This document shows positions 4,521 through 62,800 of a DNA stretch of 64,000 bases, piece after piece. The notes under the pieces are model-generated. The model searched no databases and was not told the DNA's origin. It worked only from the letters and a program-made list of their open reading frames with translations. This DNA is from Amphiura filiformis (taxonomy: Eukaryota), in NCBI RefSeq assembly GCF_039555335.1, contig NC_092630.1, positions 31,212,769 to 31,276,768 of the forward strand. Direction: 5' to 3'. A program made the position numbers and the translations under genes. Each line of letters begins with the position of its first letter. The first letter of the stretch is position 1.

Positions 4521-4647
4521 CATACCATAGTAGGTATTGTGGGATACAATCTCCCTCTCTCGACATGTTAAAAATCGCTTGCCCCTCCCCTCCTCTCTGC
4601 CTGCCAAATAATCTTTGCCCCCCTTTCCACATACCAAATTTTTGGGA

Positions 4648-5165
4648 TCCCAATGGTACAGGGTGCACAACTTAAAAGTTCCCCCTAATACTTTTTAAAA
4701 TAAGTCCAAAAATATTTTATGAAATATTTAAATGTAAAAAGAAATTTATAGCCCTATTTGTTTTACCCCTGTGGACCAATTTATAGCGTCACACATCATT
4801 GCGTTCAGTCACAATGGTTAATTATGTAAGAAAAGAGGCTGTTTTAAAAGTTGCACCTGAGCCCATAGCAGTCAGGTTTTCTTTAACACATGAATTATAG
4901 GCCTTGCCTGCTGTATTGTTTGAGGAGTTGACTCCTATGGACTCAGATGCAACTTTTAACACAGTTTAAAACGGTTTCTTTTTTACATAATGAACCATTG
5001 TGACTGAACGCAATGACGTGTGACGCTATAATTTGTACCATAGTTGTAACACAAATAAGGCTACACATGTCTTTTTACAAGTTTGCATTGCATCAAATAT
5101 TTTTGATTCATTTAAAAAAGTATTTAGGGGGGAACTTATAAGTTGTGTACCCTGTATATTGCGAG
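4648..5165. mobile_element. Foldback/MITE (~520 bp) with nested inverted repeats: outer ~50-bp TIR ggtacagggtgcacaacttaaaagttccccctaatactttttaaaa / rc, and inner IR tttatagcgtcacacatcattgcgttcagtcacaatgg / rc
   Basis: The inverted repeats are read directly at 4650-4700 vs 5110-5160 and at 4781-4820 vs 4992-5030. Confidence 0.7.
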
Positions 5166-9423: not shown

Positions 9424-10090
9424 TTAAGGGATCCAAAATGAGCGTTTATTGCGTTTCGACAGTATTTTTTGTGGAACATGAGAGCACCTCAGACCTATCA
9501 ATTGCATTCTTAATCTGAAGCATGTCTTTCTGATATCAAATAATTTTCATTTTTAAAAATCACAATATAATACAAATTTTATGACAAATTATAAAAATTT
9601 GATATTTTTCAAATTTTGATATATAACAGTCCTCGAAGTAAATTATATAAATCGAATGATATATTCTTAAAGTGTATGTAGCTGGGAGGAAAAGCCGACG
9701 GTCAATTGAAAATTTTGACCTTTCATATTGAAGATATGGATTTTTTCCCAAAAGACCTAATTTGTTTTGGTGTTTTGGGAAAAAAAATCAATATCTTCAA
9801 TACGAAAAGTCAAAATTTTCAATTGATCGTCAGTTTTTCATCCCACCTACATACACTTTAAGTATAAATCATCAGATTTATAAAGTTTACTTCAAGTACT
9901 GTTAAATATCAAAAATTTCAATTTTTAATGATTTGCCATAAAATGTGTATTAAATTGCGAATTACAAAAAATCAAAATTATTTGATATCAGAATGACATT
10001 CTTCGCATTCAGAATGCAATTCGATATGTCTGATGTGCTCTAATGTCCCAAAATAAATACTGTCCAAACGTTCATACCCCAGCCCTTAAG
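9424..10090. mobile_element. Giant foldback element copy 1 (~670 bp near-perfect palindrome; termini CTTAAGGG…CCCTTAAG)
   Basis: The left and right halves are reverse complements of each other around a centre near 9760 (…ttttcccaaaagacctaatttgttttggtgttttgggaaaaaaa…). It is homologous throughout to 26628-27249. Confidence 0.8.
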
Positions 10091-22380: not shown

Positions 22381-22760
22381 TAATAGGTATGCTAGGTGAA
22401 TTCAAATTTGCCATCAAACTGCATCATTTTATCAAATCAAAGCCCTTGAGTAAACAAAGAAAAAACTGAAAACCATTTTTTCATAGCACTTTCCGTAGCA
22501 AAGTTACATCTTGTCAAAGATTGACTTTCATCAAAAAGTTTCAGCTAGCAAAATTCCCCAAAGCGGCATTTCGGGATGTTTCTAGATCTTAGTCTCATTA
22601 TGATAGCAGCTTTTTTAATGGAACTGCTATCCAAATCCCTCTAAAATTCCATGTGCGAGTGACTTATCACCATAAAAAATCATATATTTGGGTCAAGTGA
22701 AGTATAGTATAGAAAACATATTTATGTACGTTTTCTTCTTCGGCCAGTTGTTTTAAATTT
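22381..22760 (+). repeat. Dispersed repeat family B copy (other copies at 40076-40400, and 40548-40617 plus 40841-41230)
   Basis: Three copies of about 350 bp are 85-90% identical. Confidence 0.7.
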
Positions 22761-24654: not shown

Positions 24655-24682
24655 TGCCCCCCCCCCCCCCCCCCCCATCTCT
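24655..24682 (+). repeat. C(23) homopolymer, one of many long G/C homopolymers (also at 20196-20214, 24470-24492 poly-T, 24590-24600, 39801-39812, 43105-43117, 49140-49152, 53445-53455, 53761-53773)
   Basis: Read directly. Confidence 0.9.
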
Positions 24683-24943
24683 GGTTCAAAATTTGTATGA
24701 CTTCCCTTCTGCCTACACAGACACAGAATTCAGGCTCATTTGATATAAAAAACATGCCTCCGCACATTTTGAGTGTAGGCTAATGGCACTGTGACCAGCA
24801 AATCACCGTTTTAGGAAATATACTCAGTCTGGCATTTCAATGATTAACCTTTTTTCCTGGCCATTTCACCCCAAAACCCTGGCTATTCCACTCCTCTAGA
24901 TCCTGTGACCTTGAAATAACCTTCAAATTATGTGAAACACCAT

Positions 24944-26627: not shown

Positions 26628-27249
26628 GTGGGGTATTAACGTTTGGACAGTATTTATTGTGGGACATTAGAGCACATCAGACACGATATCAAATAATTTT
26701 GATATTTTGAAATTCAGTTCGCACTGAATGTAATACACATTTTATGGCAATTGATTAAAAATTGATATTTTTGATATTTAACAGTATAGTAAACTTTATA
26801 AATCTGATGATTTATACGTAAAGTGTATGTAGGTGGGATGAAAAGCCGACGATCAATTGAAAATTTTGACCTTTTGTATTGAAGATATGGATTTTTTCCC
26901 AAAACACAAAAAAATAGGTCTTTTGGGAAAAAAATCCATATCTTCAATATGAAAGGTCAACATTTTCAATTGATCGTCGGCTTTTCATCCCACCTACATA
27001 CACCTTAAGAATATGTCATTAGATTTATAAAATTTACTTCGAGGACTGTTATATATCAAAAATGTGAAAAATATCAAATTTTGATAACTTGTCATAAAAT
27101 TTGTATTATATCGTGAATTTCAAAAAATGAAAATTGTTTGATATCAGAAAGACATTCTTCGTATTCAGAATGCAATTCGATATGTCTGATGTGCTCTCAT
27201 GTCCCACAAAAAATACTGTCGAAACGCTCATACCAGATCCCTTAAGGGC
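26628..27249. mobile_element. Giant foldback element copy 2
   Basis: It has the same arms as copy 1 (gtatgtaggtgggatgaaaagccgacgatcaattgaaaattttgacc… / rc), with a centre near 26915. Confidence 0.8.
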
Positions 27250-29207
27250 AAAGCAAATAATATTATATATTCAAACAAAATAATACCCCTTATATCAAGC
27301 ATCAGGATCTCCTTATAAAACCTATACCATTCCTCTTGTGTGTCAGCTTTAGTTGTCACAATATTTGAATGCCAACACCACTAGGTCATATTCCCCTCTG
27401 ACCTGCCTTCAATCTGTGATGTTTTTAGGAATAAATGGTATATTTATAGTAAGGTAAATATGACCAAATTGCAATTAAATACCGAAAAGATAATAACTGG
27501 TAGACCAACAGGTGGTGATTGTGAGTACCATGGTGTAAATATTATTTGAGTTATTTTGGAGCTACTCTACAAATTGATTTTGGAAACCTGTGTGCACATA
27601 GCTGGGTGAAACGGATTTACCGAAACGGACTTACCGATGGCCCATTTTCACTTTTTTTTTTAATGTCAGAAATAAAGGAAAAGTTGACTCAAAATGTAAA
27701 AAAGAGAGAAATTATGCGCAGCACAAAACTTTTTTATCAAATACATTAGAAAGTGAAGAGAAATTGCGTGACACTGCACCAATACAGACAAGAGGACAGT
27801 ATATTCCCTAATCTAATTGTATTCAACAATAAGGGTGGAATAATTTCAGTAAAGCACAATAAAACTTTAATGAAGACTTTTCAGTACTTTTTATTACAAA
27901 TATTTTAGTACGCACGTTTAATTATATCAAAATATATGTACATTTTTACATGATACATACAAGGATAGAATCATTGTCATCTAAATATACTTTTAGAAGC
28001 ACATAATAAGCTTAACATAATAAATCAATGGACAAGTTATTTAAATAATACTAATTGACTCCATTATACTCAATTTCTTAAAGACCCATTCAGTGATCCC
28101 AGCAAAAGTGTAAAAAAATAAATAAAATTATAAATCGCTTTAAAATGAAGGATAAGTCATTCAAATTGTCATTTGGTATTTCTGAAATAACAAATTTGGC
28201 AAAAAACTAAGAAAACAGCAGTATTCACAAGTTGAAGCTCCATTCAAATACATGTAGCTAATTTATATACTGTCAGTATATAAATTACAGATTCATGTAA
28301 ATTCCTTATTTTTGTCTTTTTTATACAGCTTTCGGCTGAACCACTTGCAGGCTATGTTAACACATATTATAACAATGACAAAGGTATCAAAATCTGAATT
28401 TTGATGATTTTTACGATCGTCCGGATGAGCAAATCACTGAATGGGCCCTTAATTTTCCTTTAACTTTTTGCATTTCCACATTTCAGTAACCACTGTTGCC
28501 TGTTTCGACACTTGATGAGAAGTGATTGCTACTGGCAACCGCCACTAGATGAATTTCAAGTGCTGATCTTAGAGTTGCCAGTTTGTTTTTCTGGTGAAGA
28601 TTTTCTTGATGCCTGTTACAGAAACTCATTGAATGTGAGAAAGTTTAAGGTGTCCTTCATTTCTGTTCAGGTGGTGCCCTCCTCTTTGTTATTTCTATAG
28701 ACTCCTAAATACAGGACCTACCTTGCTCCATGCCAATGACTTTACATCCCCAATCTGATGACATGATTCTTATCAAAATAAGATCTGTGATAGCAGATTC
28801 CTTTCTGATTCAAATCCTGGACAAAGAAGGATAAACAAATAAGAAAGAGGGCACCACCATGAACAGAGATGAAGGGCAATATGAACTTTATCACATTTTC
28901 GAAAATCCCCAGAAGAAAAAAACAACTGACAAATCATAAGAAATCCAACTAATATCAGTTGTAGTCAATTCATATCAAGTGTAAAAAAGGCAACAGTGAT
29001 TGCTGAAACACATGCAAGTAACTGCATTTTCTGGATCAGATACAAAGTTTACTCTACTGATCCTGATAAACTTATTAAATCAGGAAAGATCATGGAAATT
29101 TTAGAAACTGCTGTCCATTAGGTCATAAAATAAAGATTTTGCATCCAGTAACAACATCTTGCCTGACTGTATGGAGCAGCTTCTTTCTACATTTTGTAAT
29201 CACCACC

Positions 29208-30410: not shown

Positions 30411-30518
30411 CTATAAGCCCATTAATGTTTTTGCTTCATTGCCTTGCTGTATCAGTGCTTCGCTTGCATATTTCTCCAACAGTTCCATCTTCTTTCTTCT
30501 GAGAAGTGCTTCTTCAAC
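30411..30518 (-). CDS. ISY1: ISY1 terminal coding exon including the stop (VEEALLRRKKMELLEKYASEALIQQGNEAKTLMGL*)
   Basis: It matches the human C-terminus IEEALVRRKKMELLQKYASETLQAQSEEARRLLGY. The acceptor is tgttttag| and the stop is TAG at 30411-30413. Confidence 0.88.
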   Translation of the reverse strand, partial: VEEALLRRKKMELLEKYASEALIQQGNEAKTLMGL

Positions 30519-30649
30519 CTAAAACAATGAAGCATAGCAATACCAACAGTTTAGATCAACAAGTTATTCAGAGACACTCAATTCAATCAGATTAAGAATG
30601 TTTATTCATTCAAAGTGTGATGTCAGAGAGGGGCAAATATCATCTTGAC

Positions 30650-30866
30650 CAAGATTGACCTTTTCGTTCGGTAAATCCCATAAGCCTTTGCGTGTACATT
30701 TGAGACGATGTCGTCATTTGACATCACGCCGACTTGCAATGCGCAGTAACTATGTTGACTAAATGATGTGCAATCGCTAAACGATCGGCGCAGATCGGCA
30801 TTACGTCAAATGACGACATCTCAGGTGTACTTGCAAAGGCTTATGGGATTTACCAAAAAGGTCAAT
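30650..30866. mobile_element. MITE/hairpin (~215 bp, almost fully palindromic; TIR ttgaccttttcgttcggtaaatcccataagcctttgcg / rc), in ISY1 intron 8
   Basis: Nested IRs are present (gtcgtcatttgacatcacgcc / ggcattacgtcaaatgacgac). Confidence 0.7.
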
Positions 30867-31173
30867 TGGCAAGATGTTGGGACATTTTGCATGTACATTC
30901 AAAATGACACCTTTATTATTGTGCATTTCTTGCTACAGAGACAAATGACCCATTTTGCTTAATTTTATCACATATATACCACTTGGCAATATTTGAGCAA
31001 GTAAAACAAGCATATCACCTTGGGGAACATGTAAATTAAGGACAAAGGACATGTTCCGGTCAATTTCTACATAGACTACAGATTGAATTTCTTTAAACAT
31101 CATGATGCCCTTATTGTTTATTGACCTCATTTTATGTTATTAGTACATGAGCTACATATCTTGGTTTTCTTAC

Positions 31174-31266
31174 CTCCTTTTGTGATGGTACTGGTACATG
31201 AGCTACATATCTTGGTTGGCCTTCCTCTCCTTCTGTCTCTTTGCTCTCATCATCTTCACCCTCAGA
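31174..31266 (-). CDS. ISY1: ISY1 coding exon (SEGEDDESKETEGEEGQPRYVAHVPVPSQKE)
   Basis: It matches human …QQKFIAHVPVPSQQE. The acceptor is tttatttttttag| and the donor is AAGGAG|gtaaga. Confidence 0.85.
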
Positions 31267-31494
31267 CTAAAAAAATAAACACAGATGCATGAAATTTATA
31301 GAAGAAAAAAATCACTCAAAAACACAGAGTAGTCCTATCCACCTAATTTATTCAACCCTTAACTAAGCTAATGTACCACTCATACCCAACAAGCATTTGA
31401 ACTCATCCCACATCTTATAAACACCATGAATATGTTCTTATTACTTTTGGCATTTTCTTCTACAGGACATAAACCAACTGATTTGATTCAGTGT

Positions 31495-31697
31495 CACACT
31501 ATAATTTGGTTCATCTCAAGTTTGGTAGTGACGTATGTGCATATTTCCCGTGCTGCAGAATCAAATCATGTGCGTAAAGTTAAACGCTCTAAGTGTGCAC
31601 GCATGCGTACATGAGCGTTTTGTTGGCACGCTTGCAGCGCAACTGCGAAGAAGCATTGATGTGACCACCAAACTTGAGGTGAACCAAATTATACAGT
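31495..31697. mobile_element. MITE (~200 bp; TIR cactataatttggttcatctcaagtttggtagtgacgtat / rc), in ISY1 intron 7, 35 bp from the exon at 31732
   Basis: The TIRs are read directly. Confidence 0.7.
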
Positions 31698-31731
31698 CCA
31701 ACACAGCATAGTAAGTTTGAATCCTATTTAC

Positions 31732-31847
31732 CTCTGAATCTTGAGTGACAGCATAGATATCATCTTCCTCCATTTCTTTGGTGACTTCTTCACTGAGTAA
31801 ACCAGCTTCCTTTTTGGATTTCCACTCACTCACGGATGCAGCTACAA
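31732..31847 (-). CDS. ISY1: ISY1 coding exon (IVAASVSEWKSKKEAGLLSEEVTKEMEEDDIYAVTQDSE)
   Basis: It matches the human acidic region that ends …EEEEINIYAVTEEESDEE. The acceptor is ttag| at 31848-31850 and the donor is GAG|gtaaat. The boundaries are anchored to ORF-track entry 31561..31881. Confidence 0.85.
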
Positions 31848-32631
31848 CTAACATATATGGAGAAAAAGATAAAATAAACAAACTTCAAGTTGCAATGTAC
31901 TAGATGCTAAATAGGTCTTTCACAGACACACATGCATACAGATCAAAATCACACACATGTACATGTGAACTCCCTACCTTATGGAAATCACACACATTGT
32001 GAATATTTTCCAAGTATTTTCTGTGTGGATCAAATTTATCTCCATACGGTTGTACCTTAACTGGCTCCACATGGCATACCCAATGGGACCGCACACCATC
32101 AAAAACTCCACAGAGTAAACCCCTGGAGACTGTTAATTTATTGTTGCAGGGACTGCCTTTTGTTGAGAGCAAGAGCAATCACACTCTGCTGCTCTCCTTA
32201 AATCTGATAATGGAGAGTGATTTTTAGCTCTTGTTAGTTGACCATTCTCTCCATATGTTCTATTGTAAATGCTCTAAACAGCTCTCCTTGAAGGCCCCAG
32301 AAGAGCTATTTATTGCTCTCCTGCAAATTCCAAAAGACAGTCCCTGTTGTTGCAATCAATTTACAGCAATATCTAATGCCCTGTAGTGCATTTTCCTTAA
32401 GGAGCATTGTTTTTTTTCTCCACAATAGAAAAATCTCCATAAGGTTGTTCCAAAGCCCATACTTGACTCCACATGGCATTAGCAATAAGACCACTGACAC
32501 ATATAATTGCAAAATCACCAAGACTACTATTATAATTTATATACAATAGATCGATTGGAAGACTCATGTGAAAATAAATAAGCAAAATCACATGCTGTGT
32601 GGAAGCCTGAACAATAACAGTTTTATCTTAC

Positions 32632-32754
32632 TATTTTTCTCGTGTTCATTTTCCAGTGGCACCAAAACTCCGTCATCCTCATCTCTGTAACCATAGTAGT
32701 CAGCATCAATAAATTTCATCATCTCACCTCTGGTCTTCCGAGCTGGTGGAGGAG
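32632..32754 (-). CDS. ISY1: ISY1 coding exon (PPPPARKTRGEMMKFIDADYYGYRDEDDGVLVPLENEHEKN)
   Basis: It matches human PLPPPRKTRAELMKAIDFEYYGYLDEDDGVIVPLEQEYEKK. The acceptor is tttctgttgtcag| and the donor is AATA|gtaaga. The boundaries are anchored to ORF-track entry 32588..32818. Confidence 0.88.
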
Positions 32755-33337
32755 CTGACAACAGAAATGATTTGACAATAACAAGTGAACTAAACAAGAG
32801 TAACAGTGCTGGTGACATAAGTGAAAGTTAAAAATATAATGTTGACATAATGTTGACAAAAAGCCATCATATGTATACTTTATCACTGAAATAATATTTC
32901 AAAGGCAAACATAAAAACAATGGCAATCACTTGACAGCTGAATTTCAGTTGAAATATTTTTAAAAATAAATTGAATTCAGCAGCAAAATCAAATTTTGTT
33001 CCATTAGCGGATATTTCCTTCTGACTTGTGAGTACTGAGTAGTACCGGAATGGGAATTCAAACTTCCATATTTTGGAAACATTACATTTGGGTAATCCGT
33101 TCCTGACTATATTGGCTGTTTAATATACATTGTAGAGTTCTATGAAGCTTCATGTGTGTGAATTATGATATAATGTCAAAATTGCTATGTTTAAATGAAA
33201 AAAAAAAAACACAACAAATTTGGCTAATTCCATTTAGGTGTAAGTTGGGACATGTGTAAACATTACAAATATGACTTTAATAAGAATACTAAGGTCTTCA
33301 GCAAAATAGTTGATTTATTAATTGAGAGCCTACTTAC

Positions 33338-33455
33338 GTTCTTGTTCAAATAATTCCCTGACCCCTGGTAGATCCTTAGCAGCACCAAAATATTTATATC
33401 CTCTATTGCCTGGAACCTCCTTGCCTTCACTGTCCAGCATCTTAGGACCAACTTT
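33338..33455 (-). CDS. ISY1: ISY1 coding exon ([39 protein letters not shown])
   Basis: It matches human [40 protein letters not shown]. The acceptor is ctttgactttacag| and the donor is AAC|gtaagt. Confidence 0.88.
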
Positions 33456-33554
33456 CTGTAAAGTCAAAGAGTTGAATCACACAGGTTATTCTCCATAAAA
33501 TTGTTTATGTATTTTCTACAAATTGCAATTTCCTTACATGTGTATGATTGTTAA

Positions 33555-33900
33555 GGGGGTACTACACCCCTGTCCAATTTTGTGCCTATTTTTGCATTTT
33601 TCTCAAAAATTATAGCACATTGGTGACAAGTAAGATATGTATATTATAGGGGCAAGGACTAAACTACTGCACTGACAATTCAGCAACTCAAGGCAAGTAG
33701 TTATTGATTTATTGATCAAATACGGGTTTTCCCTCATTTTTGACTGTAACTCCACAACTGTTGTCCGTGCTGAAATAAAATTTCCAGTGCAGTAGTTGCA
33801 GTCCTTAATAATATACATATCTTACTTTTCACAAATGCACTATGATTTTTGAGAAAAATGCAAAAATAGGCACAAAATTGGACAGGGGTGTAGTACCCCC
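33555..33900. mobile_element. TTAA-flanked MITE copy 1 (piggyBac-like; TIR GGGGGTACTACACCCCTG…CAGGGGTGTAGTACCCCC; internally a long palindrome). It sits in an ISY1 intron.
   Basis: TTAA is present at 33551-33554 and 33901-33904. The element is about 346 bp. Confidence 0.8.
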
Positions 33901-34796
33901 TTAAGTGCCACATAAATGAGACATATTTATCAAAACACTTTATTCAATATCAAATATATTTTCACTGTTATGCACATTATGTGTTTATCACTGCTGCCAT
34001 AACACTCACACAAACACCCACCTGCACACACACCCCTCATGCAATCCTTTTGTATGCCCAACAGCCCTCGAATTAAGGATCTGAAGGGGCACGGCAACTT
34101 TTTTAGGGCAAGTTGATAATTGCCGTGGATTTTCACTGAAAAGGCAAGGCAGCACGGCAATTTGTAATATTTCAAAAGGGCATCAAGGCAACTGTTGAAA
34201 ATTTGAGAAGGGCACCAAGGCAATTTTTCAAAAGCGAATAGATGCATTACCGTCAGCTGAATTCGACACCAAAATTCGACTCTCAACTTTACACTAAAAC
34301 TAACCTGATTGCTTTAAAAAAAACCTGCTTTATAATACAGTTTAATTCACTTAAATTTTGCGATCCCTAGTTCTGAGCTGCAAAACTGACTCGAAATGTA
34401 GCGATGAAACAGCTGTAACTTTGGTAATAATATTGATCAAATTCGCCGGGATAAAAACTATTTCGTGCAAAACATATCTAGAGATGGGCTCACATGTACA
34501 AGATAAGACGATACCGGAAGGGTATCGCCATCGGTTTGCAATGGGAAGTCAATGTTTGATAATCGAGAGAACAATTGATTTGCCCAGCGCTCAGATTTTG
34601 TTCACGACACGATCGAGGTCGAGGAAGCTATAGTTACTAACAGCGTTTCTGATTGGTAGATAGTACGTTGAAGGTATTTCTCTGACCAATCGAGAAAATG
34701 AAGTCAGATTTCTAGTAACCAGATAATGTATAAGCCGATGTGATTGGCTGAATATGTAAGCTTACGTAGGGGTAATGAATATTAATTCACAACAAA

Positions 34797-35176
34797 CTAT
34801 TGTGTATTCTGTCGGTCCGTGTCACGTCACTTCCGGTTGATGATGTTCGAGTGAAAACAAGTCCCTGATTCGATTTTTGTTGATGATTTCTGTCATTGGT
34901 GTAAATGTAAATTTCGATCGCAAATAGTCAGTGGAATCAAACAACCGTTTCTAAGTCTTAAGAGTGAAAGAAACTTACTTGATTTACCGTTTATATACTG
35001 ACAAACTTAAAATTAAATTCCATGGTCGAGTATCGCTTTTTTTTTCCGAAATTGAATGCCACTCCAGCAACATCGCTATGTAGCCTCCTTCACAGCCGGT
35101 TTCTGTTGTTCACAACAAACCGTGCGCCACATGCAGTTTGGGCCCGAGACTAGAGATAGCCCGGATGTTCGACCGA
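34797..35176 (+). mobile_element. Short TIR element (~380 bp, TIR ATTCTGTCGGTC…GACCGACAGAAT; internal TGACGTCA and CTTCCGG motifs). A second, inverted copy is nested at 55868-56262.
   Basis: The two copies are about 90% identical over the full length. The termini are defined by where the homology stops. Confidence 0.7.
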
Positions 35177-35867
35177 CAGAATACTGTGATTGATAGCTGG
35201 GTTACGATGCTCAAAATAGTGATCATGTTCAAGATTTTCGATTTAAATTTCCACAATTTTGCTGGGATTTAACTAACCAGTACTTGTTAATGATTTTATA
35301 ATGAAGGGACAGGGCTGGCGGCTAGGGCACCCACGGCAAACTTCATTTAGGGGCGCGACAAGTGACTGCCGTCGATAAAGGACATATTTTGAGGGCATTG
35401 CGGCAATGGGGTGGGCACCACGGCAATATGCCGTCGGTGCCGTGGGTTAATTCGAGGGCTGATGCCCAACACTTGAAATAGATTGTTAAAATGAAGCTTG
35501 TTCAAAATGGATCAAATCATGAAATGAATCTATGTTGTACTAATGGCTAAAATGTTGTGATGGCATATGCTGCAATTAAATACAAACTTTGCAGGATAAC
35601 TGCTGAATGGTGGCTACCAATGAAACAGAAATAAAAGGTGGGATGAATTCCTTTTACAAACTTTGTGTACTTTAAGCATACAGCGTGTAATTATGCAGCA
35701 CTGCCAATTGACTACTTGTGTGATCTACTGAGAGTCAACACCAGTTTGCAAATGATGACAGCAAGCGCATACTCCTTGTAAAAGGAACCCGGATTGATAG
35801 ACAATATGTAAGCAAAAGGAGAAGAATGTACAGTGCTGCTGCAATTCAGCAATGAAGTTAATTTTAC

Positions 35868-35980
35868 CTTATAGTCTGGACCTCCAAGTTCAACTATACG
35901 TTGTTCCCAGTGTCCCTTTTCTCTTAAGAGCTTGTTGATTTCATCATTGAGGTCTCGTACCCTGAACTCCCCTAAACCGG
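35868..35980 (-). CDS. ISY1: ISY1 coding exon ([38 protein letters not shown])
   Basis: It matches human [37 protein letters not shown]. The acceptor is tgttttatgacag| and the donor is AAG|gtaaaa. The boundaries are anchored to ORF-track entry 35712..35987. Confidence 0.9.
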
Positions 35981-37769
35981 CTGTCATAAAACAGAAAATA
36001 AATGATTAGTAACTTTGTTGAGTGAACCAGGTGGAATAACAACCACAACCAGGGAGGTCTATTCTTCTGGAAAATTTAACTTAAACTTATTCCCTTGTGC
36101 TACCCTGCTGTGGTCACATCAGTCTCTAGATTCTTTCCCATCCTGGCTCCCACAGAAATGCACCCAAAAGGGAAAATATTATTTGATAATTAACATTAAC
36201 TTTGATATACTCCTTAAATTCAATCTTCCCTACAAACCTCAAATTCATCCCTGGATGGTGCAGTCTGGACACTGAACCACCATTGCATCAAAGGAAAGAC
36301 TAATGGTTCAAAGGGAAGACAGATTAGGGACTGTAAAGCACTTCTAGGCTCTTTATTATTTATAAAGCCTTTGACATTCTTCTGAAGATGGTAGTCTCAT
36401 GGCAGATTTTTTTAAATCCTCTTGAAACTTCTTTTTTTTTGTGTGCATGTGTTTTGTCTCCACTTGTTTTTTTCTTTCAAAACACAAAATTCTTCCCCAA
36501 AAGGCTAAAATTATATAACAGAAGAATAGACACCCCTGCTAACAACACTATATCTCCTTCAGTGTATACTCCCTGGAATTCTAGAAATGTGATTCTATTG
36601 AGCTCTTTAAAATTGCCCTGTTTGTTAATATTTCAGCTTTAATAATATTTGTGGGTGCACAGCAACTTCAGCAAGTACAGGCTTCACACATTTGGGTATG
36701 AAGATTTGTTCCAACACTCCTTACCATGCATGTATAACCTCCATGTATGTAGTCATCAAACCAGTGTTTTTACTGTGTCTAAATCTCAATCATGATATTG
36801 ACCAATACAAATTTACCATTAAAATCCGATTAATTAGTTAATAGTTCATTAATAACAAACATCAAAGCAACATCAACAGTCAATCCACAGATCCAACATA
36901 TTTGGTTGTGGTGCCTTACTTACCCTGCATAACCATACACTCCAAATGCATTGTCAACATGTCATTGTGTATAATGAATACTATTACTGTATGTACATCA
37001 ACAATTTTTCACATGCATACCTTGATGACAAATTTCCAGAGGAACATTATAGACAAGGGCTTAGGCAGCCAGCCGTGTAGGGAGTGTTTTACACACCCAA
37101 ATTTGTAAATACACACCCAGTTTTTGCCCACATGGCCTATACTTTTTACACAAATCTTAAATTTACACACCCAGTTTTTTGAATTTACACACCCAAACCT
37201 TCAAATCCTGCCTAAGACCCTGATTATAGAACAGCACTTTTTAAGTGTTTTATCAAGAATACGATAGTAACAAAAACACCAACACACATGAAAAATAAAT
37301 GCATGCAAATACATTCTATTTTGTAACTGTCAGTAAATTGTCCTATTTGTTGCACAAATCAAGACAAATTATTTTAGTTTCTATTGTTGTCCATCAGTGA
37401 CCTTCCTGTCCCCTCATGCTCTGTAAATTGTGACACTGAACCATTCATGATGAATGATCTTACAAAGCTTGGTTCTGAAGTTAAAAACATGTTCTCATTC
37501 TCCAGGCATTAGCCAGAGGGGGGTCCAGGTGTCATTTGGACGTCCTGTTTTCAATTTGGACACCCTAAAATTCTGATTTTTATATTGGAGTGAATAGGAA
37601 GTAGACACCCTGATTTTGTAGAATAAGGTATTTTTGACCATCTTGGACACTCTAAGGACACCCCTCTGGCTAATGCCTTGCTCATACTTATGAATGAAAT
37701 TTAAGTTGTGAAATTTATATGATCACCACATGGAAGTCATCATTACAGAAAATAAACTAGAAAACTTAC

Positions 37770-37930
37770 CATTTTGAATTTGTGCTACTTTCCTTGACAC
37801 TTCTGAAATAATTTGCCTCCTCCACTTCTCTGCTTTGTGTAGATTGTCACACTCTGTTGCTAAATATGGCCTCCTTTCTTTCACCTTGCCCTCCTCCATT
37901 TGGCTGTTACGCCACCTTGCCAGGGTGGTC
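37770..37930 (-). CDS. ISY1: ISY1 coding exon ((M)TTLARWRNSQMEEGKVKERRPYLATECDNLHKAEKWRRQIISEVSRKVAQIQN)
   Basis: Its translation is close to human ALARFRQAQLEEGKVKERRPFLASECTELPKAEKWRRQIIGEISKKVAQIQN. The acceptor is tttataag| and the donor is G|gtaagt. The boundaries are anchored to ORF-track entry 37723..37977. Confidence 0.9.
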
Positions 37931-49581: not shown

Positions 49582-49956
49582 GTGAGTCATTTGGTTTTTA
49601 TCGTATCGGAATCGGTACAAATCCTCTCAATTGCCGATCAATTGAACCGTTAAAACTGACTGTAGAGTGCATCCTAATTAATTACTCAGGAAGTGTAGGA
49701 CTTGTCATCATGGTTATTTTTCGTGTAGTACAGATCGGGATTTGTATCGGCTGGTTCAAGGAGAAATTATCGGCAATCGGCGCATTCAGAACTTGGGGTG
49801 ATCGGTTCTTCACTAAATATATTTCTGATGTTAGTAGAGATGTTATATATTTCCATTAAGAAACTATTTCCTATATTCCTATTATCCATGATTCATATAA
49901 AGTGTACTTCCCAGACCATTTCATCATTCATTCAATGCTTGTGTTTTTCCTTACAG

Positions 49957-50089
49957 GAATTAAAGCTAATATTTCCCAATGCCCAGAGGTTAAATCGTGG
50001 TAACTATGAAATGAATCAACTGGTGCAAGCTTGTAGAGCTAATGATGTCACCGATCTTATCATTGTACATGAACATAGAGGAAATCCAG
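49957..50089 (+). CDS. IMP4: IMP4 coding exon ([44 protein letters not shown])
   Basis: It matches human ELKLVFPGAQRMNRGRHEVGALVRACKANGVTDLLVVHEHRGTP. The acceptor is tgtttttccttacag| and the donor is CAG|gttagt. The boundaries are anchored to ORF-track entry 49798..50094. Confidence 0.9.
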
Positions 50090-51144
50090 GTTAGTTGTGT
50101 CAACCAAATCGTCAGTCCTGAAATGCAGATTTTCATTGTATTTTTAGAACGAACAGAAATCCGAAGAGGTCATAATCAATTTTAAAAAGAACAAGCACAG
50201 GCGCCACACCTAGACGTTGATCCACAAGCCTCAGCACATTTCACAGTCATGGGTGATGTTGCCCTGTATGGGACCATGACAACCCCTCTCTGACATTAGA
50301 AAATCCACCAGTACGCGCCTCACTGCGTGTCTAGGTGCTACGCGCCTCGATCCTAGCCGAGGAACTAGGGCTAGTTCTAATCTTGCTGTGCCCCTACAGA
50401 TCCTTAATTTGAGGGCTTTATAATTAGGCCCAAAAAAAAAAATTGTTTGTTTGTCCACGTCCGACCGACCGTGTACCCTGGTCCCGACCGTGTCTCTTTT
50501 TTTTCTTTTTGATTTTTGATTTTTTTTTGGCATCGATGGGACATCGTATAAAACAGTGGTTAGTATAAATTTAAAGAAAGAAAATGTAAAGAAAATTAAC
50601 AGTATAACATGCAGAACCATCTCAAGAGTTAAACCAGTAAAGTGCTGTGTGTTTTGACTTATTTACCAGTCTTCAAATTAAAAAAAAAAAAAAAAAAAAA
50701 AATCCAACCTACCGTCTACCGACCCAACTTTTTCATAAGCCTCTATGGACAAACAAACAATTTTTTTTTTTTTTGGCCTTGGCTTCCTTCAATAAAGTTG
50801 ACTATATGCACCATGTGACTACCAGACCTGGATTAAAACTGAAAGAAATTGTTCTGCAGGATGTGTAAATGAACTTACTGAAATACTACACTACAAGATT
50901 CCTATTGCGGCCACCTTACTTGCATAGTACCAATGCTGCTACTGCACAGCAGTGGTACTATCCCGGGGTACTATACTGGTACCTCCCTGTTATTGCACAG
51001 TACCATGCCAAGTATCATTGGCGACAATGTAACTGTGCAGGTGGCTGCAATAGGAATCTGGCTCACTGTCTTATTGTTAACATTTTAAATCCAAAGTTAT
51101 ATCATATCTTTATCTATATGCTTCCTTTTATTGTTGAATTTCAG

Positions 51145-51299
51145 ATGCTTTGCAAGTTTGTCATCTGCCGTATGGTCCCACAGCATACTTTACATTAATG
51201 AACACAGTAATGCGACATGACATTCCTAATATGGGCACAATGTCAGAAGCATATCCACATCTAATCTTTCACAATTTCAAGTCAAAACTTGGAGAAAGG
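51145..51299 (+). CDS. IMP4: IMP4 coding exon ((D)ALQVCHLPYGPTAYFTLMNTVMRHDIPNMGTMSEAYPHLIFHNFKSKLGER)
   Basis: It matches human GLIVSHLPFGPTAYFTLCNVVMRHDIPDLGTMSEAKPHLITHGFSSRLGKR. The acceptor is gaatttcag| and the donor is AGG|gtaaga. The boundaries are anchored to ORF-track entry 51150..51335. Confidence 0.9.
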
Positions 51300-51529
51300 G
51301 TAAGATTGGTATTTATAAACAGTAAATTGTATTGAATAGTGTAGTAGTAGGAAAAACAATTGCAATCTGTTGTTTATAATGCCATACCAAAAAAGCGTAC
51401 ATGCTGCTCACATGATTGGATTTGAATTGATCATTAGCATATGAGATTGCATTATACTGTGTGGAATGACTTAGTTGTCAGCTAGTTATTTTATTTAGTT
51501 ACTTATGAATGTACACTGTCAGTGATTAA

Positions 51530-51880
51530 GGGGGTATTACACCCCTGCCCAATTTTGTGCCTATTTTTGCATTTTCCTCAAAAATTATAGCGCATTGGTG
51601 ACAAGTAAGATATGTACATTATAGGGGCAAGGACTACAACTATTGCACTGGAAATTTTATTTCAGCACAGACAACAGTTGTGGAGTTACAGTCAAAAATG
51701 AGGGAAAACCAATATTTGATCAATAAATCAATAACTACTTGCCTTGAGTTGCTGAATTTTCAGTGCAGTTGTTGTAGTCCTTGCCACTATAATATACATA
51801 TCTTACTTGTCACCAATGCGCTATTATTCTTGAGAAAAATGCAAAAATAGGCACAATTTGGCCAGGGGTGTAGTACCCCC
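51530..51880. mobile_element. TTAA-flanked MITE copy 3, in IMP4 intron 5
   Basis: TTAA is present at 51526-51529 and 51881-51884. Its interior is about 90% identical to copies 1 and 4. Confidence 0.8.
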
Positions 51881-52059
51881 TTAAAGCTCTTATAAAGTCA
51901 ATTAAAAATAGGATTGTGAATGTGAACAAGCAGACACTAGCTAAAAATCATTGTGTATGGTGAAATAGATAACACAGGATATCTTCCTTCTATAATTCTC
52001 TAGTTTACATCACAACTAATATTGTACGCAATTTTGATTGTATCATTGTTTATTTGCAG

Positions 52060-52154
52060 GTAATGAACATATTAAAGTATTTGTTTCCTGTACCCAAAGA
52101 TGAGAGTAAAAGAGTGATGACATTTGCCAACATGGATGATGTTATCTCATTTAG
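52060..52154 (+). CDS. IMP4: IMP4 coding exon (VMNILKYLFPVPKDESKRVMTFANMDDVISF + AG)
   Basis: It matches human VSDILRYLFPVPKDDSHRVITFANQDDYISFR. The acceptor is tttatttgcag| and the donor is TTTAG|gtaagt. Confidence 0.85.
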
Positions 52155-53276
52155 GTAAGTCATATAGCCTTAGTACCGTACTGACGTGAGTATAGTCCCA
52201 CCTTCGAGTAAAGTCCCACCCCAAATTTTCGAAAAATCTAAGAAATTAAAAAAAAAAATTTTCGGCTTTGGAGTGTCCCAGGACCTAGACCTAAATGCTA
52301 GGATCATTCATGGTTGATTTAAAAAATAATAATTGAATTTTGCATGGTGTTTTGTGTTTTTAATATGAATTTGAATGCATTTTGATATCATTAATAGAGT
52401 ATGACAAACAAAGTATCAATTTTCATATTAAAAACACAAAACACCATGCAAAATTCAAATTTTTTTTTAGGTCAACCATGAATGATCCTAGCATTTAGGT
52501 CTAGGTCCAGGGACACTACAAAACCTTTAAAAAAATTTAATTTTTTTTTTTTTTTGAAATTCGAGTATAGTCCCACCCCCCCAATTTTGAAAAATGTTCA
52601 CCCAAAACGGGGTGGGACTATACTCAGGCATCAGTACGGTAATTGCTAACATAAATTCAAGAGCTTAGAACAGCAACTGGTTTTATCCAGTTGGATTTGG
52701 TCTGTCATATTAGCATGAACGTGAACCAGTGGTGTATTTGGTGGGATTTGTTTTCCATAAAGAATCAAATATTTGAAGTCAAGACCACCATTTTGGATTT
52801 ATCCTTTGTCACTCAACAGATTTAGCCTAGCACAGAAATCTTCAATTTAAGGATTGTACAACTTTATTCCATTAGCTGTTTATAAATTCCTCAATGGAAT
52901 CTATACAATAGTCTAACTCATGAACATATTACACCAAGCATACACCAAATTTTGGACATAGCTAGTTCTGATTTTAAGCCCTTAATTTGTTCCCTGAAAA
53001 GATACACGTAGATGGTGTTTACTAGTTTCGAAGCCAGTAAAAAATAAAAAAACAAGCAGGTTGAGTAGTTAAAATGTGCACAAATTGACTGCAAATGTTT
53101 TTTGTTTGTTTTGGTTTTGGTTTTTTTCTATCATGTTAAATTAGTGTGTTGGTTCCGTTATTGCATCTTGAGCTGAATCAACAGATTATTTTGAAAAATA
53201 AATGCTATTCTGAACCACACATGCCTGTCAATAATGGTTTTGTAACTCATGAGCGTTCGTACTTTATTTTCTTTAG

Positions 53277-53350
53277 ACACCATGTTTACAAGAAAGTTGA
53301 TCATAAAAATATTGAGCTGTCAGAAGTTGGACCAAGGTTTGAAATGAAAT
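53277..53350 (+). CDS. IMP4: IMP4 coding exon ((R)HHVYKKVDHKNIELSEVGPRFEMK + T)
   Basis: It matches human RHHVYKKTDHRNVELTEVGPRFELK. The acceptor is ttttctttag| and the donor is AAAT|gtaagt. The boundaries are anchored to ORF-track entry 53146..53382. Confidence 0.9.
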
Positions 53351-53384
53351 GTAAGTCACATGTTCATCATTACTTTTGTTAGGG

Positions 53385-53875
53385 GCTGTGCAATAATTAT
53401 GTGTACCCCAGGAAAGTGGTCTGCCAAAAATCACTCCCCCCCCCCCTTTTGACAGTGCCAAAGATTTTGCCCTCCCCCCCCTTTGACTTGCCAAAAAACC
53501 TTTCCCCCCCCCCCTTTTGACATGTCAAAAAATCTTTTCCCCCCCTTTTGCACACTAAGATTTATGGGAACCCGAATTTAAAACCTGAAATTGTCTTATC
53601 GTATTTAATGCGAGCGCAGCGAGCAGGAAATATTGCAGATTTGAACGTGTTCCTAATGATTTTCTATGCATTTTTAGGTTGTAATATAGAAACGGTGCCC
53701 AAAATATCTGTCCCAAAAATCGCTTGCCCTCCCCTTTCGACCTGCCAAAAATCGCTTGCCCCCCCCCCCCCTTTTGACCTGCCAAAAAATCTTTGCCCCT
53801 CCCTTTTGGGCTGCCAAAAATCTTGCCACCCCTTTTAATTCACCACCCCGGGGTACACATAATTATTGCACCACC
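53385..53875. mobile_element. MITE (~490 bp; TIR gggctgtgcaataattatgtgtaccccagg / rc) filled with about 32-bp tandem units (tgccaaaaatcgcttgccccc…cttttgacc, ×8). It begins about 35 bp after the IMP4 exon-7 donor.
   Basis: TIRs are at 53388-53412 and 53848-53872. Related unit copies are at 4575-4640, 5270-5330 and 24420-24440. Confidence 0.65.
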
Positions 53876-54356
53876 CCTTAATTCCATTCATTGATTTTGT
53901 GTTTTATTGATGGACCTAAAATTGCAAACAACTTAATGTATGTGATGAAATATAAAGCAACAAGTGTTTATCATATATGTGATGCCACATGGATGGATGA
54001 GTTTATGAATGGTTGGTTGACTGTTGAGCAGAAGAAATATCAATCTAAACACAGCAGCCAATGGACAGGCTGGAAGGGATGTTTGTTTGGCTTATAATTG
54101 GGGGAAAATGATACTCATAACATCGTGTATTGATATAGAATGGGGTGGATGCAGTTTGGCGCAGCACTTAACACTAGTTGTGTGTTGCATAATACATGAA
54201 TTGGGCTCGCTAATGTTAATTTATGCAAGCTCCACAAAAAAATGAATCATTTTCACCAATTATAAGCCACACCGACTATAGAACATATTGACTTGTGATA
54301 TTATAAAGCTTTATTACAAGGTACACGTGTATAAGCAAATAATAAGCTAATTTTAA

Positions 54357-54710
54357 GGGGGTACTACACCCCTGCCCGATTTTGTGCCTATTTTTGCATT
54401 TTTCTCAAAAATTATAGCGTATTGAGGACAAGTAAGATATGTGTATTATAGGGGCAAGGACTACAATTACTGCACTGGAAATTTTATTTCAGCACAGATA
54501 ACAGTTGTGGAGTTACAGTCAAAAATGAGGGAAAACCAATATTTGATCAATAAATCAATAACTACTAGCTTTGAGTTGCTGAATTTTCAGTACAGTAGTT
54601 GTAGTCCTTGCCCCTATAATATATACATATCTCACCTGTCACCAATGTGCTATAATTTTTGAGAAAAATGCAAAAATAGGCACAAAATTGGCCAGGGGTG
54701 TAGTACCCCC
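54357..54710. mobile_element. TTAA-flanked MITE copy 4, in IMP4 intron 7 (right flank mutated to ATTA)
   Basis: TTAA is at 54353-54356, and the right side reads cccccATTAag. ORF-track entries 33603..33818(-) and 54441..54662(+) lie entirely inside these elements and are spurious. Confidence 0.75.
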
Positions 54711-55297
54711 ATTAAGATTAGTGATACTGATTTTCCACTCTACCATCCAAATGCAGTAGTGATAGGTCAAGTTGGTAGGGTGGTAGATCTTGATAATAAA
54801 CTCACACTCATTCTTACAATTGATAATTAATGTTAGAGCTCAATGCATACATAAAGTTGTGGGGCTGTTAATCTGTAATTGTTATTTCATTTTATTTTTT
54901 GCAAAATGCACTAGTATTTTATTAAGTAACACAATAAGTGTTTAAAATTTCAGCAGATGGTGTTGGACTGTTGGTGTAGTGTAATTAGTAGTATATACAT
55001 CCCAATTTGACTTGACCATTTTCCAAGTGATTAGGTTTCTCTGTTATCTGGCTGAGTTGCCACCAAAGGAAACACATGTTTTAACAGCCATGTCATCTTG
55101 TTTGTATGCAGGAGGCAGTTGGAAGCCATACCTTTGTTGTTTTGTTACTGTTTAATGCTGATATAGTATCTGTTCACCTTATTACCCATTCAGGACTTAT
55201 TATGCTAATTGTAGAGGTTTTATTTATAAATCTCAGCTGCTGGTTTTTCACTCATATGGTTCAGTTGTTATAGCATTTCTTTTCCTTTTTCCCACAG

Positions 55298-55413
55298 TAT
55301 ATGAGATCAAACTAGGCACCATAGAGAATGCAGCCACAGCAGATGTAGAATGGGTGCATAGACCATACATGAATACAGCCAAGAAACGAAGACATCTAGC
55401 AGCACAAGAATGA
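55298..55413 (+). CDS. IMP4: IMP4 terminal coding exon including the stop ((L)YEIKLGTIENAATADVEWVHRPYMNTAKKRRHLAAQE*)
   Basis: It matches the human C-terminus LYMIRLGTLEQEATADVEWRWHPYTNTARKRVFLSTE. The acceptor is tttttcccacag| and the stop is TGA at 55411-55413. The summed CDS is about 870 nt, or about 290 aa, which matches the 291-aa human protein. Confidence 0.88.
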
Positions 55414-55780: not shown

Positions 55781-56372
55781 AAAACCTCGTCTACAAGCAT
55801 ATAGAGTGCTTTTGATGAAAGCGCCATCCATAGACAAAATTAGAACATCATGGCGTTTTAGCAAATAAATTACCGATTCTGTCGGTCGGACATCCGGGCT
55901 ATCTCTAGTCTCTGGCCCAAACTGCATGTGGCTCACGGTTTGTTGTGAACAACAGAAACCGGCTGTGAAGGAGGCTACATAGCCATGTTGCTGGAGTGAT
56001 ATTCAATTTCGGAAAAAACAACACTCGACCATGGAATTTAATTTTAAGTTTGTCAGTATATAAACGGTAAATCAAGTAAGTTTCTTTCACTCTGAAGACT
56101 TAGAAACGGTTGTTTGATTCCACTGACTATTTGCGATCGAAATTTACATTACACCAATGACAGAAATCATCAACAAAAATCGAATCAGGGACTTGTTTTC
56201 ACTCGAACATCATCAACCGGAAGTGACGTGACACGGACCGACAGAATACAAGCATATACAAACAAATACTATTGTAAGACCATTCTATTTTATCGGGATA
56301 CTTATGGCTGATTCGTTTTAATATAGCCTTCATCAAAATCGCTCTATGCTTGTAGACGATGTTTTACGGTAT
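55781..56372. mobile_element. MITE family A copy 2 carrying a nested insertion (55868-56262)
   Basis: It has the same TIRs as 15183-15412. The interior is replaced or expanded by an inverted copy of the element at 34797-35176. Confidence 0.75.
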
Positions 56373-57857: not shown

Positions 57858-58134
57858 GGCTATTCCAGTTGAAATCCACACTCCCCCTGTGGAAGATTTT
57901 GGAAATGTGTTCCACAGGGGGCGTATGAATTTCAAATGGAATTGGCACATTAGGCAGCTCCATTTGAAAGTCACGCTCCCTCTGTGAGAGATTCAGGTTG
58001 AAGCATTCTCAGAGGGTGTATGAAATTCAAATGGAGCTGGAATGTGCTAATTCCATTTAAAGTTCATACTCCCTTTGTGGAACATGTTTCCAAAATCTTC
58101 CACAGGGGTAGTGTGGATTTCAAATGGAATAGCA
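57858..58134. mobile_element. MITE/foldback (~275 bp; about 45-bp TIR ctattccagttgaaatccacactccccctgtggaagattttggaaa / rc)
   Basis: The TIRs and an internal two-fold symmetry are read directly. Confidence 0.7.
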
Positions 58135-60727: not shown

Positions 60728-61915
60728 TTACAAAATAATGCAAGTTTTCGATTGCGGAGTTGGTGACGATGTTTGATGTCTTGCTGAGGGAGTTCCACGT
60801 ACTTCACCATTTTGTCCACTACGTTCGCTACTACTGCGATTTCTTCTCACCTTCTGCAAGGTTTCTTCGTCAAGAAAACCTTCCAGCTGCTGCACTTCTT
60901 GTGAAACCTCGCGGAGTTCCGTTTCCAATTTAGCTACCCTCTCATCCTTTGCCTGATCATCTTTGACAAATCTTTTCAGTCTCAACTGCAAGTCTTTCAC
61001 TTTGCGATCACTCTCCTCTTTCTCTTCAAGAATTTCTGTAACCTTTTCACGCAGATATTTCTCCGTGTCTTGTTGCTGAGAAAGTTCGTGAGCAAGATAA
61101 TCTGCTTGCACTCGAAAACCATCTCGCTGCCGTGCCTTTTCATTTACGTCACTGACAGAAGATGATTTGGATAACGATCTTTCGGCTTTCTTTGAATCAT
61201 CTTCCCTATTTTCCAATTTTGTGCGTAATTCAGCATTTTGCTCACGAAGAGAATCTAACTGCAACTCTGCAGCTAAGAATTTTGTGTGCAAGGTTCCATA
61301 TGTCTCTCGGAGTTGCTCTTCAGTAAGAACAGAGATGTCGTATTCATCATTACCATTTTCCTTAGCGCATTCCACAGTTGCAGGAATGTCTTGATCATTT
61401 GGAGAATCCGATGTGACATTATTGTTAGGTGGCTCAGTTTTACTTTCCCCGTTTACCTCAGGCTCATTAGGCGACTCTGTTTTCTCGTCGCCATTCTTGT
61501 TTTCAACACCATTTTGAATGTCATTTTCAGTTGTTGGAGGTGCTTCGGATTTGTTTTCTGAAGTATCGTCGGTCATCTTGTTTGATTCAACACCCTCGTT
61601 GGCAGAACTATCAACTTGTTCATCTTGTTTTTCAGAGTTGTCTTGCGTATCTTCTGTTCTATTTTCTTCATTCGTTACATCATGCACTTCGGCAACATCG
61701 CCATTAGATTCTGTGTCACCGTTCACTTTAGGTTTGTCCTCATCGTGATCTTTCGTCTCTTGAACTGCAGAATGATCATGCGTCGTCCCGTCTTCCATCA
61801 CCGTTACCTCTGTACGATCTTCAGGAGCTGTCATCACCTTTTCCGCCGAGTCTTCTTGATTTGGAGGCGATGTTTCCTCAGCTAAAGCTTCTGCAGGTGG
61901 CTCTGCCATTTTCAT
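60728..61915 (-). CDS. Intronless 395-aa ORF: acidic, Ser/Asp/Glu-rich N-terminal half, then a coiled coil of about 150 aa (…LQLDSLREQNAELRTKLE…KDLQLRLKRF…KLETELREVSQEVQQLEGFL…), then a C-terminal CaaX box (…QSKTCIIL*). Family not assigned.
   Basis: This is by far the longest ORF in the window. It starts with a real ATG (ATGAAAATGG, good Kozak context) immediately preceded by an in-frame TGA. The four C-terminal residues C-I-I-L fit the CaaX consensus, with a terminal Leu implying geranylgeranylation. An acceptor-like ttatttacag lies about 65 nt upstream of the ATG, suggesting a spliced 5'UTR. Confidence 0.7.
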   Translation of the reverse strand: MKMAEPPAEALAEETSPPNQEDSAEKVMTAPEDRTEVTVMEDGTTHDHSAVQETKDHDEDKPKVNGDTESNGDVAEVHDVTNEENRTEDTQDNSEKQDEQVDSSANEGVESNKMTDDTSENKSEAPPTTENDIQNGVENKNGDEKTESPNEPEVNGESKTEPPNNNVTSDSPNDQDIPATVECAKENGNDEYDISVLTEEQLRETYGTLHTKFLAAELQLDSLREQNAELRTKLENREDDSKKAERSLSKSSSVSDVNEKARQRDGFRVQADYLAHELSQQQDTEKYLREKVTEILEEKEESDRKVKDLQLRLKRFVKDDQAKDERVAKLETELREVSQEVQQLEGFLDEETLQKVRRNRSSSERSGQNGEVRGTPSARHQTSSPTPQSKTCIIL

Positions 61916-62404: not shown

Positions 62405-62800
62405 ATCCAACGTTTCGAAAAGACAAACCCGCTTTTTCTTTTCAAGGGATAAAATAAGAGACCTGCTCTCAATATAGTGGAGACATAAGAGACCTGCTCT
62501 CAATATAGTGGAAACATAAGAGACCTGCTCTCAATATAGTGGAGACATAAGAGACCTGCTCTCAATATAGTGGAGACATTTGAGGCCTGCTCTCAATATA
62601 GTGGAGACCAGCTAAGAGCAAAAAACAGCCGACTAAGTCAGACATTAAAAACTGCGAAAATATGACACAACATCCAATGCTAAGAACTGGTCTCCACTAT
62701 ATTGAGAACAGGTCTCTTAAATCTCCACTATATTGAGAGCAGGTCTTTTATTTTATCCCTTGAAAAAGAAAAAGTTTTGTCTTTTCGAGACGTCGGGTTT
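62405..62800. mobile_element. Foldback element containing a 31-bp tandem array (agagacctgctctcaatatagtggagacata ×5 at about 62455-62610, plus 2 inverted units at about 62690-62750); about 70-bp TIRs
   Basis: The TIR cgtttcgaaaagacaaacccgctttttcttttcaagggataaaataagagacctgctctcaatatagtggag is matched by its reverse complement at 62690-62795. The element lies about 500 bp upstream of the CaaX-ORF start. Confidence 0.7.

Follow-up and report, generated by a model that had tools for sequence, protein, structure and literature searches.

The introns of the ISY1 and IMP4 genes of the brittle star Amphiura filiformis contain related repeats of about 350 bp, and the question they raise is what kind of element they are, what moved them there, and when. 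We analyzed a stretch of 64,000 nucleotides that includes both genes (contig NC_092630.1, positions 31,212,769 to 31,276,768; referred to below as the window), in which an initial annotation had described four such repeats as palindromic, piggyBac-type MITEs (miniature inverted-repeat transposable elements). We found that the repeats are very probably copies of a MITE that duplicates TTAA on insertion. The explanation that we favor for the locus as a whole, and that we hold to be the probable one, is that the copies are old, independent insertions of a Kolobok-type MITE. The family is a new, unnamed one of a well-known kind, and the element is an ordinary MITE.

Four copies of one element are flanked by TTAA

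Direct reading of the sequence confirmed all four copies at the coordinates given previously, with one element of 346-354 bp in each interval:

33555-33900, minus strand: c1, a 346-bp copy of subfamily A in an ISY1 intron
47606-47958, orientation not definable: c2, a 353-bp copy of the diverged subfamily B in IMP4 intron 2
51530-51880, plus strand: c3, a 351-bp copy of subfamily A in IMP4 intron 6
54357-54710, plus strand: c4, a 354-bp copy of subfamily A in IMP4 intron 8

All four copies start with GGGGGTA(C/T)(T/C)ACACCCCT and end with the reverse complement of this sequence, and all eight ends read 5'-GGGGG / CCCCC-3'. The outer pattern of the element can be written as TTAA + GGGGGTACTACACCCCTG ... 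CAGGGGTGTAGTACCCCC + TTAA. In a search that tolerated up to 3 mismatches, the 18-nt end GGGGGTACTACACCCCTG was found at eight sites in the window, one per end per copy and each with 0-1 mismatches, while 100 shuffles used as background gave no matches. These counts bear out the earlier claim that the termini are common to all copies. No further copies or fragments were detected in the window, either by BLASTN with the copies or with an nhmmer profile built from the four of them.

The copies are of the size typical of MITEs, which are shorter than about 800 bp, and are noncoding, with only chance stop-free stretches of at most 82 amino acids. A profile of the longest of these chance open reading frames (ORFs), compared with 1.84 billion representative proteins, returned one spurious plant protein only, and a six-frame pseudo-protein of the MITE consensus and c2 had no relatives among 8000 candidates. 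Like other MITEs, the copies have terminal inverted repeats in common, and their arms are complementary over about 100-170 nt.

The sequences directly adjoining the copies were as follows:

33551-33554: TTAA, left flank of c1, target-site duplication
33901-33904: TTAA, right flank of c1, target-site duplication
47602-47605: TTAA, left flank of c2, by direct reading
47959-47962: TTAA, right flank of c2, by direct reading
51526-51529: TTAA, left flank of c3, by direct reading
51881-51884: TTAA, right flank of c3, by direct reading
54353-54356: TTAA, left flank of c4, by direct reading
54711-54715: right flank of c4, an extra A (54711) followed by an intact TTAA (54712-54715); the inverted repeat reaches 54715

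An exact TTAA thus adjoins the element on seven of the eight sides. TTAA is found at 0.8% of the positions in the window, and the chance of seven exact flanks out of eight is P ~1e-14. The eighth side, to the right of c4, reads CCCCC-A-TTAAG. The initial annotation had recognized the TTAA flanks, but had taken this one to be mutated to ATTA; one A inserted before an intact TTAA is more parsimonious than ATTA, which requires two substitutions.

Apart from the duplication, the sequences that flank the copies are unrelated to one another, and among the pairwise repeat families of the window the similarity between copies begins exactly at TTAA. Because the flanks are otherwise unrelated, the copies are the product of insertions rather than of local duplication. 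For c3 and c4 in particular, a local duplication was considered and rejected, since the similarity between these two copies starts right at TTAA. Reconstructed empty sites had no other match in the window, and there is no paralogous empty site there.

The duplication could in principle be something other than TTAA. The junctions, TTAAGGGGG...CCCCCTTAA, are formally open to parsing as a TA duplication around a Tc1/mariner-like element (AGGGGG...CCCCCT) or as a 3-bp TWA duplication like that of PIF/Harbinger 'Tourist'-like elements. Tourist-like MITEs commonly have G-rich first bases, and the window itself contains a TA-flanked, Tc1/mariner-like MITE, at 4659-5154. However, a TA duplication would need the outer T and A to be present by chance in all eight cases (P ~1e-4, from the base frequencies of the window), and a TWA duplication would need asymmetric element ends together with a fixed extra T/A in all four copies (P ~0.01). 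The symmetric inverted repeat, moreover, ends exactly at TTAA. We therefore regard a duplication other than TTAA as very improbable.

Each copy is a long hairpin, and the copies form two subfamilies

The interiors of the repeats had been described as long palindromes, and this was true of each copy over its full length: every copy aligned end to end with its own reverse complement, at 77-84% identity (BLASTN). As a single strand, each is predicted to fold into one long hairpin of ~170 bp. The predicted fold energies were -205.7 kcal/mol for c3 and -215.5 kcal/mol for c2, with z ~-26 relative to shuffles for both. The terminal inverted repeat is near-perfect over 18 nt and then imperfect up to the center of the element. 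The arms of c1 (33551-33647 and 33808-33904) are 95% complementary. Over its full length, copy c2 is a nearly perfect palindrome (84% self-complementary, with a 4-nt loop), and for this reason its orientation is not definable.

Copies c3 and c4 had been singled out as about 90% identical. They are indeed a close pair, but the true figure is 93%, and c1 is equally close to them (91-92% identity, in reverse-complement orientation). These three copies make up subfamily A. Copy c2 is only ~73% identical to the others, at a Kimura two-parameter distance (K2P) of 0.34, and defines a second subfamily, B. Subfamily A has an asymmetric segment of ~50 bp to the left of the center, and its copies therefore have an orientation; the right half of A is homologous to both arms of B.

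To compare the arms of the two subfamilies, we aligned half-elements, that is, the two arms of the A consensus and the two of c2, with the right arm reverse-complemented in each case. There were 18 concerted positions, at which both A arms agree, both B arms agree, and A differs from B, and 15 and 19 positions that differ in one arm only. RNAalifold found compensatory changes at 16 of 145 predicted pairs. The arms have therefore changed in concert between the subfamilies, and the palindrome was accordingly regenerated or homogenized within each lineage and did not decay freely. Concerted change is expected where each subfamily had a parent with long, homogenized inverted repeats, or where the foldback formed anew. 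We considered RNA-level selection as the cause of the covariation between arms and rejected it, because the long inverted repeats of transposons co-evolve without selection. It is very unlikely, although the joint change of both arms could point that way, that the palindrome has been maintained because the hairpin itself is needed, whether as a single-stranded DNA intermediate in mobilization or as a ~170-bp intronic double-stranded RNA (dsRNA) feeding a small-RNA pathway that acts on the MITE family or on ISY1/IMP4.

The terminal bases favor Kolobok over piggyBac

The piggyBac-type label given to these repeats was not supported by a comparison of their ends with those of known elements. There are TTAA flanks at all four copies, piggyBac is the best-known TTAA-specific superfamily, and MITEs derived from it and flanked by TTAA have been documented, for example in corals (PMC2872659). 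However, the terminal repeats of 157 surveyed piggyBac-like elements open with a highly conserved C, in the context C[C/A/T][C/A/T], and piggyBac excision requires the 3' terminal G, the loss of which abolishes excision (PMC5381638). The piggyBac terminal motif is CC[C/T]T, and the coral piggyBac elements and MITEs listed all start with CCC or CCCT (PMC2872659). The brittle-star copies have the TTAA duplication but neither the conserved first C nor the final G, as all eight of their ends start with GGGGG and finish with C. Reverse-complementing is no remedy, since the element is symmetric. That the copies belong to a piggyBac-superfamily MITE, moved by a TTAA-duplicating piggyBac-like transposase of the DDE_Tnp_1_7 type, thus seems unlikely to us.

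The human elements MER75 and MER85 are piggyBac-derived MITEs. Those of corals (CMITEs) are like the brittle-star element in having TTAA, a short noncoding sequence, terminal inverted repeats and intronic copies (PMC2872659). They differ from it in polarity: piggyBac elements read 5'-CC[C/T]T...GGG-3', and the brittle-star element has the opposite arrangement, 5'-GGGGG...CCCCC-3'.

Kolobok elements also duplicate TTAA, and their ends have the form 5'-RR..YY-3' (PMC9587614, PMC6004289). The T2-MITEs of Xenopus, which have been assigned to Kolobok, combine a TTAA target with terminal AGGRR, and the terminal repeat of one full-length Kolobok from Xenopus reads AGGGGAACTATC (PMC6004289). In A. filiformis, all four copies have the TTAA duplication together with 5'-GG...CC-3' ends, which conform to RR..YY. 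Under the published rule for such ends, the mobilizing enzyme would most likely be that of Kolobok. We provisionally place the family in the Kolobok superfamily, a placement that is probably correct and that we derive only from the terminal-base rule.

The resemblance to the Xenopus T2-MITEs (Xmix and relatives) includes the TTAA duplication and purine-purine first bases, AGGRR in T2 and GGGGG in the brittle star. Both kinds of element are a few hundred bp in length and have long inverted repeats, several subfamilies and insertions in genic regions (PMC6004289, PMC9587614), and the Xenopus Kolobok terminal repeat given above counts among the points of resemblance (PMC6004289). The brittle-star element differs in that it begins with G where AGGRR has A, and there is no similarity beyond the run of G. 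It also differs in its host, an ophiuroid echinoderm, in being a palindrome over nearly its full length, and in being linked to Kolobok through its ends alone. The KolobokP composites of molluscs and echinoderms likewise have RR..YY ends, and the Kolobok lineage is present in sea stars, sea urchins and sea cucumbers (PMC9587614). KolobokP differs from the element described here in its long terminal direct repeats and its duplications of 3-5 bp, and the published KolobokP consensus sequences contained no match to the terminal repeat or arms of the element.

Because a duplication and two terminal bases are a weak basis for assignment, and because no transposase has been linked to the copies, we also considered that the MITE might belong to some other superfamily that targets TTAA, described or not, for example to the Sola group, which makes 4-bp duplications. 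Nothing specific speaks in favor of such a superfamily, and three accounts of TTAA-specific elements name only piggyBac and Kolobok (PMC9587614, PMC6004289, PMC2872659). This alternative is improbable, though less so than a duplication other than TTAA. Searches for more copies of the element beyond the window were negative: the paired-end pattern of the element and a 30-nt conserved subterminal pattern had no match in JGI metagenome contigs, a pattern scan of IMG/VR viral contigs gave no match to the element, and the terminal-repeat strings matched only unrelated primers in the literature.

Two other sequences in the window, at 28082-28448 and 10841-11953, are single-copy candidates for TTAA-flanked elements with 16-bp terminal inverted repeats (14/16 matching). 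Their ends are mostly purine-first, AGACCCATTCAGTGAT / GGGCCC... in the element at 28082-28448 and GGCAGCTGTGTACTCT / CGCGGC... in that at 10841-11953, one end of the second being C-first. Markov shuffles gave ~0.07 such TTAA pairs per window, yet other palindromic 4-mers score similarly in a window so rich in hairpins.

Age and local density of the copies

The three subfamily A copies are equidistant from one another in a star-like pattern, with pairwise K2P of 0.066-0.073, and lie at distances of 0.029-0.036 from their majority consensus, which is 352 bp long and has only one CpG. The neutral rate of A. filiformis has been given as 1.885e-9 per bp per year, in a genome that is 59% repeats and experienced a burst of mostly DNA transposons, with ~2% divergence, 10-15 million years ago (Ma) (PMC11310086). 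At that rate, subfamily A was inserted about 15-19 million years (My) ago, near or slightly before the reported burst. This age is not recent in any population sense, and the recent mobility that had been suggested from the similarity of c3 and c4 was overstated, given that 2.9-3.6% divergence from the consensus corresponds to about 15-19 My.

All four copies lie within 21 kb of the 64-kb window. Under a uniform model the probability of such clustering is P ~0.11 (4r^3 - 3r^4, r = 0.33). Several other MITE-like families are also present in the window. The local density, which the initial annotation called high, was thus put too strongly.

All four copies are in introns of ISY1 and IMP4

We located exons by tblastn, using human ISY1 and IMP4 sequences as queries. 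The genes relevant here are:

13-22 kb of the window, minus strand: Hydrolase_6 (HDHD5-like) gene, adjoining ISY1
30417-37929, minus strand: ISY1 exons (Pfam Isy1, E = 1.6e-84 for the concatenated exons)
45251-55413, plus strand: IMP4 coding exons; the start ATG is most likely at 41738-41740

Over 291 residues, the spliced IMP4 model, which has canonical GT-AG introns, showed 100% identity with an NCBI entry, 'U3 small nucleolar ribonucleoprotein protein IMP4-like [Amphiura filiformis]', and the window is therefore brittle-star DNA. From this model and the ISY1 exons we verified the intronic location that had been reported for all copies: c1 is in ISY1, and c2, c3 and c4 are in IMP4 introns 2, 6 and 8. 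The nearer end of c1 is ~100 nt upstream of an ISY1 3' splice site at about 33457, and c2 is 359 nt upstream of the acceptor of IMP4 intron 2. Copy c3 and one TTAA account for 47% of the 760-bp IMP4 intron 6. The intronic position of the copies is unremarkable, because the region from 30 to 55 kb is almost wholly intron or spacer.

The head-to-head arrangement of ISY1 and IMP4, with the Hydrolase_6 gene beside ISY1, is kept in Strongylocentrotus purpuratus and Acanthaster planci. The orthologous ISY1-IMP4 loci of these two species contain no copy of the element. They belong to other echinoderm classes, and so the comparison is uninformative on recent mobility. The annotated ranges of ISY1 and IMP4 are ~280-300 bp apart in the sea urchin and the crown-of-thorns starfish. 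In the brittle star, the IMP4 start is ~3.8 kb from the coding exon of ISY1 that was found farthest upstream (residues 10-68); ISY1 exon 1 was not located.

We also considered that the element might be a structured sequence selected by the host, with intronic hairpins kept for small RNAs or for control of ISY1/IMP4 splicing. The predicted hairpins are extremely stable, the concerted changes between subfamilies preserve pairing, and the three subfamily A copies have the same direction relative to host transcription, which has a chance of 1 in 4 (P = 0.25). Against this, elements with long inverted repeats are expected to show concerted evolution of their arms even when they have no RNA function, there was no Rfam match, the element is absent from the orthologous sea-urchin and sea-star loci, and substitutions accumulate at about the neutral rate. 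Selection by the host is the least probable of the explanations that we considered, and we think it extremely unlikely.

Proposed origin and present status of the copies

We propose that the copies are four independent, old insertions of a nonautonomous cut-and-paste DNA transposon, a MITE. A transposase encoded elsewhere would bind the terminal and subterminal repeats and excise the element, which would then re-insert at TTAA by way of a 4-bp staggered cut, with repair duplicating the TTAA. The mobilizing enzyme would most likely be a DDE transposase of the Kolobok superfamily, whose signature is C/DxxH, as for the Xenopus T2-MITEs. Subfamily A (c1, c3 and c4) would stem from a single amplification about 15-19 My ago, and c2 would represent an older or separate subfamily.

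Several points weigh against this proposal. The only ground for the Kolobok call is a published rule about two terminal bases. No transposase ORF was found in the 64-kb window (without a full six-frame domain scan), nor was an autonomous element with matching ends, the A. filiformis DNA searched being the window. The consistency of the TTAA flanks is known from only the four copies of one 64-kb window, and a TA duplication, with the element extended by one base on either side, formally fits the same sequence, although it is disfavored. The past mobility of the copies is also something that we infer from their structure.

The copies are today most likely inert passengers of introns. In transcribed pre-mRNAs of the host genes ISY1 and IMP4, each copy could form a dsRNA hairpin of ~170 bp, a possible substrate for dicing or editing.

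Other repeats and features in the window

A foldback of ~496 bp at 4659-5154, with ends CAGGGTGCACAACTTAAAAGTTCCCCC... / ...GGGGGGAACTTATAAGTTGTGTACCCTG and TA at 4657-4658 and 5155-5156, looks like a MITE of the Tc1/mariner type. The youngest repeats in the window are a mutually inverted 380-bp pair at 34803-35182 and 55876-56250, with 96% identity and ends ATTCTGTCGGTC.../...GACCGACAGAAT; an ISY1 intron holds one of the two, and the second lies just downstream of IMP4. An AT-rich repeat is present in two copies of 85-91% identity (9550-9917 and 26788-27126), each a foldback of ~300 bp, with arms at 9611-9746/9782-9917 and 26788-26904/26922-27038. Three copies of an interspersed repeat of several hundred bp, 75-97% identical in pieces, are located at 22384-22738, 40070-40424 and 40543-41107, the last two adjacent to each other in the ISY1-IMP4 spacer.

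There are also several tandem arrays. Five copies of a 31-bp unit (95% matches) occupy 62454-62608, and a partial inverted copy is found ~80 bp away at 62691-62750; the array and this copy together make up a larger inverted repeat (62433-62515 / 62690-62772). Short arrays of C-run-rich units of 32-37 bp (CCCCCCCCCCCTTTTGACATGTCAAAAAATCTTT) are found at 53426-53836 (IMP4 intron 8), 4547-4628 and 24665-24710. At 57859-58133 there are three tandem units of ~93 bp that each form an internal hairpin (ATTCCA.TTGAAA..CACACTCCCCCTGTGGAA...); the first and third are mutually inverted and 89% complementary.

The remaining two features are an integrase remnant and an ORF. A degenerate Ty3/gypsy-type integrase fragment with two frameshifts is present at 4122-4527 on the plus strand (Pfam Integrase_H2C2, E = 1.8e-13); it had no relatives in a word-indexed protein search. 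An ORF of 395 amino acids at 60728-61915 on the minus strand has an acidic N-terminal half, a coiled-coil C-terminal half, and a weak Tropomyosin match below the cut-off. Given that no gene product of exactly the same sequence is on record, the ORF probably represents the final exon of some larger gene.

Implications for annotation and for the history of the genome

Nothing about this family would surprise a transposon specialist. Its value for annotation is that a TTAA duplication alone is not to be read as piggyBac; by its ends, the family belongs with the Kolobok-type MITEs in a brittle-star repeat library. A MITE family with an age of about 15-19 My could help to date the burst reported at 10-15 Ma and to find the autonomous element responsible. 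The long intronic hairpins are worth flagging for studies of small RNAs or RNA editing in A. filiformis.

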